Of a stretch of 14,534 bases of DNA, positions 3,501 through 7,135 are shown in pieces. This stretch comes from Abditibacteriaceae bacterium. Lineage in GTDB: Bacteria; Armatimonadota; Abditibacteriia; Abditibacteriales; Abditibacteriaceae. Each line of letters starts with the position of its first letter. Position 1 is the stretch's first letter. The stretch spans positions 1-14,534 of the forward strand of contig JANPJS010000218.1 of the NCBI GenBank assembly GCA_031425655.1. The letters are read 5' to 3'. Below the pieces are notes generated by a model. It was given only the letters and a program-made list of their open reading frames with translations, was not told where the DNA came from and ran no database searches. Position numbers and translations under genes: made by a program.

Positions 3501-3959
3501 ATGGATTCTGTTGATGTGAACGGCACCGGACTGCCTTTGGACGGCGCCAAATTTCCGAATTTGGCCATGCAAACCGGCTCGGTTTCCCAAAGCGAGTTTA
3601 AAATCGGCGCTTTGGAACCGACGTGGATTATCGAGGGCAGCCCCGTGGTGCGGGCACTGGCCTTAACCAATTCCGAAGACGGATTGTTTTCCTGCGGCCT
3701 GTGGGACTGCACTGCCGGCAAGTTCAAGTTCATCTTCGGCTACGATGAAATCGTCCACATCATAGAAGGCGAGGTCACGATTCAGCAGACGGATGCTGAA
3801 TATACTTTGCGTCCCGGCGACGTCGCATTTTTCCCGAAAGGCGCGACAACTTACTGGACTGTGCCTCACTACGTAAAAAAATTCTGTATCCATCGCTCTG
3901 TGCAGCGCAGTCTGGCGGGCAAGATTCACGCGCGCATAAGGCAAGTTTTGAAGCGATAA
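3501..3959 (+). CDS. Cupin domain protein (DUF861 / Cupin_3, EutQ-like)
   Basis: The GLWDCTAGKF...YDEIVHIIEGEVTI...TLRPGDVAFFPKG...WTV...VKKF signature is present. A Shine-Dalgarno AAGGAG lies at 3489-3494. Confidence 0.9.
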   Translation: MDSVDVNGTGLPLDGAKFPNLAMQTGSVSQSEFKIGALEPTWIIEGSPVVRALALTNSEDGLFSCGLWDCTAGKFKFIFGYDEIVHIIEGEVTIQQTDAEYTLRPGDVAFFPKGATTYWTVPHYVKKFCIHRSVQRSLAGKIHARIRQVLKR

Positions 3960-4088
3960 TAGGATTTCGTCTTGATTCATGCCCATCGCGGTTGTTCGCA
4001 GCCCCAAACCGGAAGCAGCGAAAAGGCCGATGGGCGCACTGAGAAAACCGTCTTCGTCCCGGTTCAAAAAGCCATTAACGCCACGCAA

Positions 4089-4167
4089 TCGCCTACAGCT
4101 TCGGCTTTCGCTCGTGCTTCGCTGCGATCTCTGCGCTTCCGGCGGCGGGTGAGCTTAGTCGTTCGGC
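4089..4167 (+). mobile_element. attC site 1 (left arm truncated or degenerate)
   Basis: The right half GGCGGCGGGTGAGCTTAGTC-GTTCGGC (R' at 4161-4167) is nearly identical to attC2. Homology to attC2 extends left to CGCCTACAGCTTCG at about 4090. No good R''/L'' is present; only a weak CATTAAC at 4073-4079. Confidence 0.8.
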
Positions 4168-4194
4168 GGCTGTGCGCAGCATTGTCGCAGGCGC

Positions 4195-4224
4195 TTGAAT
4201 TTGAAGTCTCCGTTTGCCTATACT
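4195..4224 (+). promoter_or_regulatory. Putative sigma70-type promoter inside cassette A
   Basis: TTGAAT (4195-4200), an 18-nt spacer, then TATACT (4219-4224), ending 13 nt before ATG 4238. No clear Shine-Dalgarno is present. Confidence 0.5.
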
Positions 4225-4237
4225 TGTCCGAAGTGCT

Positions 4238-5017
4238 ATGGACAACCTCGAACTCATATCCCAACTTAAAGAACAAGCAAAGGAAGTTTCTGTTCGCAAT
4301 GGCGGCGAGCTTGATGCCGTCATTCGCCGGACTGAAATGATTGTCCGCAACGTCTTTGGCCCCGCAAGCAAATACCTTACGGATATAAAAGAGCTTAGCT
4401 TCCATCCGTCGTTTGGGCCTACAACAGAAGAATACAAAATTAGTGTTTGGCATTCCGGCCATAAAGCTTTAATCAACCTTATTCAAACGATGGAAGATGA
4501 ATTGAAGCTCTTCCAGCTAACAGCGACACAAGAGGAAGGCGCAACAAACCCAACGCAAGTAGGGAACCAAATTTTCATTGTTCATGGACATGACGAGGAA
4601 ATGAAACAGTATGTCGCCAGAACACTTTCAATTCTTGATTTGGAAGCAGTGATACTGCATGAAAAGCCGAATCAAGGCAGAACAATAATTGAAAAATTTA
4701 CAGATTATTCACAGGTTTCTTTCGCCATCGTTCTATTGTCACCTGATGATGTAGCTCGGCCCCGCCATTCAAAGCCAGAGGAGGAAAAGTTCAGGTCAAG
4801 GCAAAATGTAATCTTTGAGTTGGGCTATTTTATAGGTAAATTAGGTCGTGAGCGTGTAGTGGCATTATATAGACAGGAGAAAAATTTTGAAATGCCGTCG
4901 GATTTTTCTGGAGTGTTGTTCGTGCCGTTTGATTCAAGTGGCAGATGGCAATTCGATTTGGTTAAAGAGTTAAAGTCGTGTGGATACAAAGTGGATGCAA
5001 ACAAATTGCTGTCATAG
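4238..5017 (+). CDS. TIR-domain protein of the predicted nucleotide-binding/Cap12-Pycsar type (PF10137/COG4271-like) with an uncharacterised N-terminal domain
   Basis: The C-terminal domain has IFIVHGHDE, ILHEKPNQGRTIIEKF, FAIVLLSPDD, RQNVIFELGYFIGKLGR and PSDFSGV, all hallmarks of this family. ATG 4238 (259 aa) is preferred over TTG 4214, which overlaps the putative promoter. Confidence 0.92.
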   Translation: MDNLELISQLKEQAKEVSVRNGGELDAVIRRTEMIVRNVFGPASKYLTDIKELSFHPSFGPTTEEYKISVWHSGHKALINLIQTMEDELKLFQLTATQEEGATNPTQVGNQIFIVHGHDEEMKQYVARTLSILDLEAVILHEKPNQGRTIIEKFTDYSQVSFAIVLLSPDDVARPRHSKPEEEKFRSRQNVIFELGYFIGKLGRERVVALYRQEKNFEMPSDFSGVLFVPFDSSGRWQFDLVKELKSCGYKVDANKLLS

Positions 5018-5029
5018 GCACCAACAGCC

Positions 5030-5127
5030 TCCGAACAAGGCGATGCACCCGACCGCTTACAGCTTCGCTCGTCGTTCCTCACTGTGGTCCCTGCGCTTTC
5101 GGCGGCGGGTTAGCTTAGTCGTTGGGC
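5030..5127 (+). mobile_element. attC site 2 (complete, 98 bp)
   Basis: R'' TCCGAAC (5030-5036) begins 12 nt after the TIR stop and is followed by AAGGCGATGCACCCGACCGC. This pairs with GCGGCGGGTTAGCTTAGTC, with extrahelical bases. R' GTTGGGC is at 5121-5127. Confidence 0.92.
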
Positions 5128-5187
5128 CGCTGCGTGCGGCTTTTTGGGAACTGGCAGTATCAAACGGCGTTAGAATAAAAGTTGTAA

Positions 5188-5246
5188 AAGCGTGGGGACG
5201 ACTTCGCGTTTCAATAAAATCTTTGGGACGACCCAAACATGAGGAG
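5188..5246 (+). promoter_or_regulatory. Guanidine-II (mini-ykkC) riboswitch
   Basis: Two tandem hairpins carry ACGA tetraloops closed by G-C pairs: P1 GCGTGGGG-ACGA-CTTCGCGT (5190-5209) and P2 TTTGGG-ACGA-CCCAAA (5222-5237). A 12-nt linker joins them. SD GAGGAG (5241-5246) and the ATG of an SMR exporter follow directly, which is the canonical context. Confidence 0.93.
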
Positions 5247-5253
5247 AAACATC

Positions 5254-5574
5254 ATGGCTTGGGTCGTTCTTTTTGTTGCGGGTTTGCTTGAAGTTGGTTG
5301 GGCTATCGGGTTGAAATACACGGAAGGTTTCACCAAACTTTGGCCCAGTGTCGCAACTATCGGCGCAATGGCCGTTAGTTTCTTTTTGCTTTCTCACGCT
5401 CTCAGAACTATTCCAGTTGGCACCGGCTACGCGGTGTGGACTGGCATTGGAGCCGTCGGCACAGTTATTTTGGGCATGGTGTTTTTAGGTGAGCCGCGCG
5501 ATGTTGGGCGCATCTTTTGTTTGTTGCTCATCATTGCCGGCATCGTTGGTCTCAAAGTCGTTTCGCCTCACTAA
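5254..5574 (+). CDS. sugE: Guanidinium exporter Gdx (SugE), SMR family
   Basis: 106 aa from ATG 5254, with the SD 7 nt upstream: [26 protein letters not shown]...SFFLLS...[11 protein letters not shown]. It retains G10, E13, W16, S42, F43, Y59 and W62, typical of Gdx rather than Qac/EmrE. It lies downstream of a guanidine riboswitch. Confidence 0.95.
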
Positions 5575-5602
5575 GGCAGCGGGGCGAGACGTTCCAACAC
5601 CA

Positions 5603-5682
5603 GTTCAACAAGGCGCTACATTCGACCGGCGGCACCCCATTCATTTCCCCCTCCCGGCGGCGGGTGAACTTGGTCGTTTAGG
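5603..5682 (+). mobile_element. attC site 3 (80 bp, somewhat degenerate)
   Basis: R'' GTTCAAC (5603-5609), then AAGGCGCTACATTCGACCGG...CCGGCGGCGGGTGAACTTGGTC, then G|TTTAGG (5676-5682). It belongs to the same family as attC1 and attC2. The left stem has mismatches, and the R' tail overlaps the DUF1501 stop codon. Confidence 0.82.
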
Positions 5683-7135
5683 CCAATAAAGCGCGAATGA
5701 CGGTGCCCGAAACGTCCGTCAGGCGGTAATTGCGCCCGCCGTAGTGGTAAGTCAGCTTTTCGTGGTCAATGCCCATCAGGTGCATAATCGTCGCGTGCAA
5801 ATCGTGGACGTGAACTTTATTCTCAATCGCGTGCCAGCCGTATTCATCGGTGGCGCCGTGAACCATGCCGCCTTTGACGCCGCCGCCGGCCATCCACATC
5901 GTGAAGCCGAAAGGATGATGCTCACGCCCGTCGGTGCCTTCGGCAGTGGGGGTGCGGCCAAATTCGCCGCCCCAAACCACTAAGGTGTCTTCCAACAATC
6001 CGCGCGCTTTGAGGTCTTTGAGCAAACCGGCGATGGGCAAATCCGTCGCGGCGCAGTTGGCCGGCAACTCGGCTTTCAGGCCGCCGTGCTGATCCCACAA
6101 TTGGCAGCTTGAGCGTTTGGAAGTTTCGGTATGATAAACCTGCACGAAACGCACGCCGCGCTCGACTAAGCGCCGCGCCATCAAGCATTGGCGGCCAAAA
6201 GTTTCAGTCACTTTTTCATCCAAGCCGTAAAGTTTGCGTGTTTCGGGGCTTTCCTTATCTACATCGAAGGCGTCCGGCGCTTCGCGCTGCATCCGAAACG
6301 CCAACTCAAAAGAGGAAATGCGCGCGTTGAGTTGGCTGTCTTCGCCGCGTTGCTGCTCGTGCAACTGGTTCAGTTGCCGCAGCGCATCTAATTGCTCACG
6401 CTGGCGCTGCGCCGACATATTCGCATTTTTAAGATTGGCAATCGGATTCTTCAGATTATTGACAAGCGTGCCCTGATAAGCCGCCGGCAGAAAACTGGAA
6501 CTCCACAACGGCGCGCCCTGCGCCGGTTGCGCCGGGCTGATGACGATGAAACCGGGCAAATCCTGATTTTCGCTGCCCAAACCGTAAGTCAGCCACGAAC
6601 CCATGCTGGGCCGCGAAAACGCTTGTTCGCCGGTATTCATCTGCAAACAAGCGCCGTTGTGATTGATGTTATCGGCCACCATCGAGCGGATAACGCACAA
6701 ATCGTCCACGCAACCGGCGACGTGCGGAAACAATTCGCTGACATCAATTCCCGCTTGCCCGTATTTCTTAAAACTCCAGGGCGAGCCGAGCAAATTGCCG
6801 GTTTTAGTGCGTTCCAAATGCGGTTTATTAAAGGGCAACGGCTGACCGTTTTGCGCCAGCAAACGCGGTTTCGGATCGAAAGTATCAACGTGCGACGGCC
6901 CGCCCGACATGAACAAAAATATCACGCGTTTGGCTCGCGCCAGATGCATTGGCGCTTTAACCGACAACGGGCCGGCAGCTTCTACTTTTTTGGCAAGCGC
7001 AGGCGCCGCACGCGATTCATCGGCCAGCAGCGAGGCCAAACCGAGCATTCCAAAGCCGTTGGCGCAGGTTCGCAGCATTTCGCGCCGCGTGATTGGCGCG
7101 GGGCCGGCGTTGTGGCGCGGATCGTTGTGTTTCAT
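5678..7135 (-). CDS. DUF1501 domain protein (sulfatase/alkaline-phosphatase-fold related) with a Tat-like signal
   Basis: 485 aa. Motifs: TRREML twin-arginine motif, AKRVIFLFMSGGPSHVDTFDPKP, RRLVERGVRFVQV, WDQH, GEFGRTP, GREHHP and VHVHDLHATIMHLMGIDHEKLTY. Confidence 0.95.
   Translation of the reverse strand: MKHNDPRHNAGPAPITRREMLRTCANGFGMLGLASLLADESRAAPALAKKVEAAGPLSVKAPMHLARAKRVIFLFMSGGPSHVDTFDPKPRLLAQNGQPLPFNKPHLERTKTGNLLGSPWSFKKYGQAGIDVSELFPHVAGCVDDLCVIRSMVADNINHNGACLQMNTGEQAFSRPSMGSWLTYGLGSENQDLPGFIVISPAQPAQGAPLWSSSFLPAAYQGTLVNNLKNPIANLKNANMSAQRQREQLDALRQLNQLHEQQRGEDSQLNARISSFELAFRMQREAPDAFDVDKESPETRKLYGLDEKVTETFGRQCLMARRLVERGVRFVQVYHTETSKRSSCQLWDQHGGLKAELPANCAATDLPIAGLLKDLKARGLLEDTLVVWGGEFGRTPTAEGTDGREHHPFGFTMWMAGGGVKGGMVHGATDEYGWHAIENKVHVHDLHATIMHLMGIDHEKLTYHYGGRNYRLTDVSGTVIRALLA

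Follow-up and report, generated by a model that had tools for sequence, protein, structure and literature searches.

The window, a stretch of 14,534 nucleotides that constitutes the whole of contig C218, belongs to an Abditibacteriaceae genome (G000) of 5.98 Mb that is 97% complete. On its forward strand, positions 5122–5676 hold a unit of 555 bp (52.6% GC), in which a leader of 132 nt precedes the ATG of gdx at 5254. An original prediction, made from the sequence alone, had described this unit as a self-regulated mobile cassette that packages a guanidine-II riboswitch and a Gdx exporter between attC sites. Both lengths were confirmed, and the two ACGA-loop hairpins, the Shine–Dalgarno (SD) sequence, the intact gdx gene and the flanking attC sites all lie where it had placed them. 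The head of the unit (5122–5145, forward strand) carries a motif common to other cassettes of the genome (28 cassette 5' ends compared), its tail likewise has the family motif, and the 28 nt between the gdx stop codon and R'' is a spacing typical of the attC family.

Using nhmmer, we found 65 matches to this attC family on 32 contigs of G000; the model was built from 42 seeds that include the window's own sites, such that the window sites score somewhat high. All of the latter lie on the forward strand. The first, attC1 (4082–4167; crossover G|TT at 4161|4162; 50.7 bits), lacks its left arm (R''/L'') and matches from model position 17 of 96. The second, attC2 (5030–5127; 98 bp; crossover G|TT at 5121|5122; 75.6 bits), is the site of the neighbouring TIR cassette, and the third, attC3 (5603–5682; 80 bp; crossover G|TT at 5676|5677; 46.0 bits), is the degraded site of the gdx cassette itself. 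A rule-based attC detector, used as a lead only, was noisy and missed attC3. As expected of a cassette, a single ORF lies between two same-strand attC sites with an R''-L''-L'-R' layout and a G|TT crossover. The neighbouring cassette (4162–5121, forward strand; 960 bp) encodes a TIR-domain protein (ORF 4238–5017; PF10137) that matches PADLOC PDC-S35 (E 1e-79), a candidate anti-phage defence gene, and has a head–tail match of 9/10. Near-identical fragments of this TIR cassette were observed at low depth in three other sediment sequencing runs.

Beyond the array, a chromosomal DUF1501 gene (5678–7135, reverse strand) is convergent to gdx and has its stop codon 1 nt from the last crossover; the array thus borders host DNA directly. 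Of four DUF1501 orthologues in relatives, three stop at this very codon and are followed by 260 nt that show nothing attC-like; the fourth reads on. An empty insertion site was not recoverable, nor could the left border be rebuilt. Upstream, an EutQ-like cupin gene (3501–3959; PF05899) was not found with this query in the 26 other genomes of the family, so the accessory region may begin to the left of attC1. The interval from the cupin gene to attC1 holds a GC-rich hairpin (3983–4037), perhaps a terminator or what is left of an earlier cassette. With three attC sites on a 14.5-kb contig, no integrase nearby and host genes on both sides, the array qualifies as a CALIN, and it resembles the CALIN/attG-inserted cassettes described as small clusters without an integrase that end at a host GWT triplet (bioRxiv 10.1101/2022.09.11.507474, in part); we infer that it was inserted at a GWT site beside DUF1501. 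In the likely source sequencing run a single contig spans 4135–5894 without differences, in agreement with the assembly though not an independent check on it.

Elsewhere in the window, positions 27–256 hold nested long inverted repeats (arms of 31 and 52 nt, 92–94% complementary) of a MITE- or REP-like kind, and a motif similar to these repeats recurs within two attC loops on C12, C16 and C211. The tRNA clusters of G000 on C61, C217 and C317 include one unassigned and one stop-anticodon call among 67 tRNA calls.

The guanidine-II riboswitch, its leader and Gdx

The Rfam model RF01068 (guanidine-II, mini-ykkC) matches 5190–5236 over its complete length (model positions 1–48); the score, 35.8 bits (gathering cut-off 32; E 0.00038), bears out the riboswitch identity originally proposed. 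At E ≤ 1 the only other match in the window was one 14-bit chance match, and the copy is single in G000, among 150 of 534 candidates scored. The Rfam match and folding together place hairpin P1 (10 bp, ACGA loop) at 5188–5211 and hairpin P2 (6 bp, ACGA loop) at 5222–5237, both on the forward strand; P2 ends 5 nt before the SD sequence GAGGAG (5242–5247, forward strand) and 17 nt before the gdx ATG. This is the arrangement of canonical guanidine-II riboswitches upstream of gdx/sugE, which likewise have two ACGA-loop hairpins, an SD sequence just 3' of P2 and Gdx downstream; a difference from known guanidine-II switches is its position between attC sites.

In the lowest-energy fold P1 is retained and P2 is open, with 5225–5236 pairing to 5259–5270 (codons 2–6) and thereby lengthening a 6-bp SD/AUG hairpin, in which 5238–5243 is paired with 5250–5256 in both predicted states. 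The predicted energy is −35.2 kcal/mol (z −4.6; 0 of 200 shuffles as strong), and the same P2–codon pairing is predicted in two relatives, G001 and G007. Folding therefore suggests that P2 paired with codons 2–6 is the OFF state. In Pseudomonas, by comparison, the switch relies on a helix termed P0b, formed by the 5' tail with the SD–AUG spacer (PMC10351892, in part), whereas the predicted partners here are P2 and codons 2–6. In the mechanism that we propose, transcription would begin either at the weak −10 inside the unit or in the TIR cassette upstream, and P1 and P2 would fold in the resulting RNA. In the absence of ligand, the loop and 3' strand of P2 would pair with codons 2–6 and the SD/AUG hairpin would grow to a helix of at least 18 bp (OFF). 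Guanidinium-bridged loop kissing is established for the guanidine-II class (PMC10351892, in part), and such kissing of the ACGA loops would occupy bases needed to start the OFF helix and, we infer, block its nucleation. In the ligand-bound form the 6-bp hairpin would remain, openable by the ribosome (ON), and Gdx would export guanidinium or guanylurea in exchange for protons. SD access was not raised in the fold model with both hairpins enforced (mean unpaired 0.41 versus 0.44).

Keeping both hairpins costs 12 kcal/mol in the window copy, against 4.0 in G001 and 4.3 in G007, and 6 of 500 synonymous recodings reached this value (median 4.2). With an OFF state more stable by this amount, the dynamic range of the switch may be small: the penalty is possibly more than the ligand can pay, and the switch may be kinetic or nearly locked. 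An extreme form of this, compatible with a cassette origin but in our judgement rather doubtful, is that the riboswitch is a relic locked OFF by an over-stabilised anti-P2 helix, with gdx barely translated with or without ligand. The size of the penalty relative to the two relatives and the predicted loss of P2 once the transcript reaches +12 both favour such locking, as do the eroded riboswitch of a further relative, G010, and the single changes stabilising alternative folds that break the Pseudomonas switch in the OFF state (PMC10351892, in part). Nevertheless, the ACGA loops, stems, SD sequence and reading frame are all intact, the gdx branch is short (0.04–0.12 changes per site in our trees), which fits purifying selection, and P2 is predicted to be 93–99% folded until +9, leaving a co-transcriptional window for ligand binding.

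As for transcription, the leader contains a −10-like hexamer, TAGAAT (5171–5176, forward strand), a putative promoter element with no −35 at 16–18 nt, just as had been described, and a sigma-70 scan of 3900–5800 listed three sites, none of them in the gdx leader. In G000, the density of TAGAAT in divergent intergenic regions (n = 282) is 1.5 times that in convergent ones (n = 250); for TATAAT the ratio is ∼10. The suggestion that the unit carries its own promoter and is autonomous thus retains its lone −10 but finds little backing in a hexamer that is barely enriched and has no −35. The same scan placed a fuller promoter-like site, TTGAAT-18-TATACT, within the TIR cassette (4195–4224, forward strand) and listed no forward-strand terminator in 3900–5800; read-through into the gdx unit is therefore possible.

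The gdx leader is the second longest of the 25 called (median 57 nt; 3 of 28 not called). It is thus unusually long, as first supposed, but the accompanying view that cassette leaders are very short as a rule does not hold in G000, where 35–80 nt is normal. Hexamers within one mismatch of TATAAT at 23–70 nt occur in 12 of 28 leaders, compared with 6.7 in shuffles (28 of 2000 reach 12), and cassette-borne promoters accordingly look common in this genome. Several cassette heads (two on the minus strand of C211, C243:14679 and C100:22624) have YTGCGC exactly 17 nt before TATAAT, GATAAT or GATACT, a sequence pattern that suggests a promoter built into the cassette head of the family; the gdx head has no good −10 at this 17-nt spacing.

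The gdx (sugE) ORF (5254–5574, forward strand) specifies a protein of 106 aa, by sequence an SMR-family guanidinium/H+ exporter. It passes the NCBIfam SugE model NF008512 (135.3 bits, cut-off 126) and does not pass the Qac, EmrE and Smr models (Smr, 84.2 bits versus 200; SMR_qac_int, 65.5 versus 188). Of eight solved sequences matched, the closest is Gdx-Clo (6wk5; E 6e-33). At positions that separate Gdx from Qac (PMC11194549, in part), all six Gdx-side residues (G10, W16, A17, M39, A67 and K101) are present, plus E13, and none of the six Qac residues. On these sequence criteria, the window protein is a Gdx and not a Qac. The postulated relationship to clinical qac/smr cassettes proved to be a loose one: class 1 smr/qac cassettes share with the window unit an SMR gene in an attC cassette, but the single class 1 smr cassette examined (NZ_CP053191) has 50% identity to the window gene and a 25-nt leader with no Rfam match, where the window unit has a riboswitch.

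Origin of the unit and probable decay of its attC site

In order to assess recombination potential, pfold was computed on the bottom strand with the R and L boxes enforced, constraints that differ slightly from those of PMC5371416. Site attC2 is typical of the family in sequence but pairs weakly at the L box (6/8) and has a pfold of 1.75e-4. Site attC3 pairs at 5/8 in the L box and has a pfold of 7e-8 in the array and 2.6e-7 as a circle, such that no recombinogenic attC hairpin is expected there. Among 45 full-length sites (median 0.06; 21 sites above 0.1) the two rank 34 and 41, respectively, three of the four sites below attC3 being badly registered. By way of comparison, a cassette between sites with pfold values of 3e-3 and 8e-6 showed no detectable excision (PMC5371416, in part). 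The head–tail match of the gdx unit is 5/10; the 28 cassettes have a median of 8, and 756 unrelated pairs average 4.5, with 49% reaching 5. In this attC family, head–tail complementarity runs to ∼13 nt, longer than the customary 7-nt core; a further YAAC sits ∼11 nt upstream of R''. No PF00589 match was found on C218, and there is accordingly no complete integron with intI and attI beside the array. The integron integrase IntI of G000, one of its six tyrosine recombinases (428 bits versus 265), is encoded on C103, divergently from an array of four attC sites; IntI is also present in four of the five relatives checked.

The present mobility ascribed to the window copy is not supported by these values: both pfold values are low, the head–tail match equals that of unrelated pairs and the contig has no integrase. 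A low pfold counts against a cassette being currently mobile, not against its being cassette-derived, and we conclude from these predictions that the window copy is probably immobilised. For the unit to be an autonomous and currently mobile cassette with its own promoter would be consistent with the intact IntI elsewhere in the genome, with the intact GTT triplets at both crossovers and with the excess of −10-like hexamers in cassette leaders. We nevertheless regard it as improbable given the pfold values, the missing −35 and the slight enrichment of TAGAAT in promoter-rich DNA. Contigs from sequencing runs point the same way, if weakly: no joint skipping or circularising gdx was seen among 15 of 36 joints examined. 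One joint, 4147–5101, is backed by just 23 letters on one of its sides and is matched by other attC copies as well, and the small shares in sequencing runs X2–X4 fall mostly on DUF1501 paralogues.

The poor head–tail match may be explained by decay, or by the fusion of two cassettes. In the latter case, the head of one cassette would have been joined by deletion or recombination to the body and attC of a gdx cassette, and the 555-bp unit would never have moved whole. Besides a head–tail match at the level of chance, such a fusion draws support from the better fit of the gdx tail to the head of a C314 cassette (7/10) and of the gdx head to the tail of a C211 cassette (8/10), from similarity to G001 that begins only at P1 (5190) and from the low match of several other units in G000 (a score of 6 or below in 8 of 28). 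On the other hand, three of four head–tail differences in the first 12 nt are GC-to-AT transitions, as are all four departures of the attC3 L boxes from the family, a bias that would follow from simple decay, and the leader contains no leftover attC or ORF. We consider a fusion unlikely.

Relatives of the host bear further on where the unit came from. Close Gdx orthologues (71–76% aa identity) are present in 5 of the 26 other family genomes. The riboswitch scores 30.9 bits, just under the cut-off, in G001 (same genus, 76% aa) and 34.6 bits in G007; it is absent from the G010 and G018 loci, and the G024 locus is cut by a contig end. The attC model has no match at the 14 relative loci, and in G001 and G007 the riboswitch and gdx thus occur without attC. 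Across the phylum, RF01068 was found in 5 of 151 genomes; the three others with gdx gave no attC-model match. In G010, which belongs to another genus and carries the gene at another locus, the 3' tail agrees with that of the window unit at 11 of 15 nt, and the attC left arm at 13 of 17 nt (1 of 2000 shuffles); for this arm, between 77 and 1175 of 2000 shuffles did as well in the remaining four relatives. By this sequence match, the G010 locus appears to be an eroded copy of the cassette. A second copy of the exact window cassette in an intact array was found in none of the 26 family genomes. A clade of the G000 and G010 gdx genes is neither rejected nor supported (p-AU 0.32), and the gdx tree fixes no branching order inside the host family. 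That relatives carry the module without attC would suit a chromosomal riboswitch and gdx gene brought in between a pair of unrelated attC sites by some recombination other than that of integrons. This appears very improbable, however, in view of the family-typical spacing from stop codon to R'', the cassette orientation, and the tail and attC left arm held in common with G010.

The reading that we prefer, and think fairly probable, is that the unit is a genuine cassette of the genome's own attC family, carrying a guanidine-II riboswitch and Gdx, last in a CALIN and largely immobilised by attC decay. Under this history, a riboswitch–gdx module resident in the host family would have become a cassette, which IntI, acting in trans, would have inserted beside the DUF1501 stop codon and which would since have decayed. 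A betaproteobacterial lineage would have made the same design on its own; the cassette there is intact and has come to lie next to different neighbours.

A separate riboswitch–gdx cassette lineage and its implications

A survey for riboswitch-containing cassettes, performed with a pattern of P2, Gdx codons and attC left arm, did recover an independent cassette, of 455 bp. The GTDB scan returned five loci (three cassette copies in one betaproteobacterial MAG, G168, one relative with an attC-left-like remnant and one chance match), counts that are lower bounds as the pattern can match neither the window's own spacing nor Vibrio-type attC arms. The metagenome scan gave eight loci (one cassette, four gdx genes without flanking attC and three chance matches), and no loci with a longer spacing that fits the window cassette. 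A viral scan yielded five matches, all rejected as chance and without an Rfam match. Among plasmids, tblastn matched 737 records, of which the 40 listed were sugE or unannotated, with no close relative above 69% among those listed; blastn with the betaproteobacterial cassette found eight plasmid records, none covering 80%.

The three copies in G168 (L061, L063 and L064) each combine a riboswitch of 47.9 bits with gdx, an 83-nt leader, P1 18 nt after the crossover and a 63-bp attC, with a head–tail match of 11/12. G168 has a full integron, with IntI (476 bits) ∼7 kb from one copy, and the array is partly duplicated between contigs C2 and C15. A metagenome contig, L071, holds one further copy of the 455-bp cassette; its upstream end is not clearly attC. 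Two G168 copies have like neighbours and the third differs on both sides, with divergence beginning exactly at the crossover, as it does in L071. The G168 copies thus have two different downstream neighbours and L071 a third, making three in all. The crossover is A|TT in all three G168 copies and G|TT in L071; pfold is 0.86 in L071 and 0.56 in G168, the latter inflated by A|TT. In a Nitrospirales genome (G169, locus L065), a gdx gene of the cassette clade (78% nt identity) has the riboswitch and, after the stop codon, only the first bases of an attC left arm.

In trees of 20 sequences, a single clade of the window gdx and the betaproteobacterial cassettes was rejected (p-AU 5e-50 for protein and 5e-5 for DNA); the constrained group was defined by trait, but after an earlier tree had been seen. 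As monophyly with the window gdx is rejected, these sequence comparisons indicate that the riboswitch–gdx cassette design arose at least twice. Looked for elsewhere, the window cassette is found only as the eroded G010 remnant, whereas the betaproteobacterial cassette does recur. The idea that integrons move riboswitch–gdx modules is consequently borne out by a separate lineage sitting among different neighbours, and this lineage, rather than the window copy, is the stronger evidence for it. The window copy matters less in this respect, and looks like a cassette under domestication.

Several known systems share parts of this arrangement. The blaCMY–blc–sugE block of plasmids moves with ISEcp1. 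Its plasmid sugE(p), 63% identical to the window's, likewise pairs a mobile Gdx with a guanidine riboswitch of type II, but adjoins a lipocalin gene, and attC goes unmentioned in the accessible part of the report (bioRxiv 10.1101/768630), the supplements of which could list integron-borne sugE. Gdx has been placed near integrase genes in print (PMC7695847, in part), and the qacE and qacI cassettes have long 5' UTRs with promoters (PMC8876359, in part). The cmlA1 cassette is also self-regulated: it has a promoter of its own and a long leader that exerts translational control (PMC8876359, in part), but through leader-peptide attenuation rather than a ligand-binding RNA. The only riboswitch-in-integron claim that we found in the literature searched is the aminoglycoside riboswitch of class 1 integrons, which overlaps attI1 and was rejected experimentally (PMC9410878, in part); the window riboswitch, in contrast, is contained entirely in the cassette and is of a class that has been validated. 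No description of a validated riboswitch class inside a cassette was found in the literature searched, a body of text that excludes supplements and most subscription journals. These are known parts in an apparently unreported arrangement.

Cassettes known to regulate themselves do so mainly through promoters and leader-peptide attenuation. That a validated riboswitch class occurs in attC-bounded cassettes, made at least twice, shows that integrons can move ligand-sensing regulation together with the gene. Moreover, cassettes of the Gdx type gain a function other than antiseptic resistance, which is of relevance to guanidine and metformin-derived guanylurea (PMC10461911, in part); none of eight qac and three smr cassettes raised MICs (PMC11721406, in part). 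A bolder proposal, which we put forward only tentatively and hold to be less likely than its negation, is that riboswitch cassettes are a recurrent and overlooked class, made more than once across phyla and acting as metabolite valves. Poorly translated cassettes lower the expression of cassettes behind them (PMC11511950, in part), so a guanidine-gated gdx in mid-array, as in G168, would render the cassettes downstream of it responsive to guanidine or guanylurea if the valve reading is true.

Finally, the UTR before P1 measures 18 nt in G168, near the point where similarity to the promoter-bearing Nitrospirales copy starts, and 66 nt in the window; through such a recognisable 5' UTR at cassette ends, one could test whether transcripts are the source from which cassettes are copied. 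In the Nitrospirales copy, a −10-like hexamer was observed just before the riboswitch, and group II intron matches lie ∼1.5 kb downstream.
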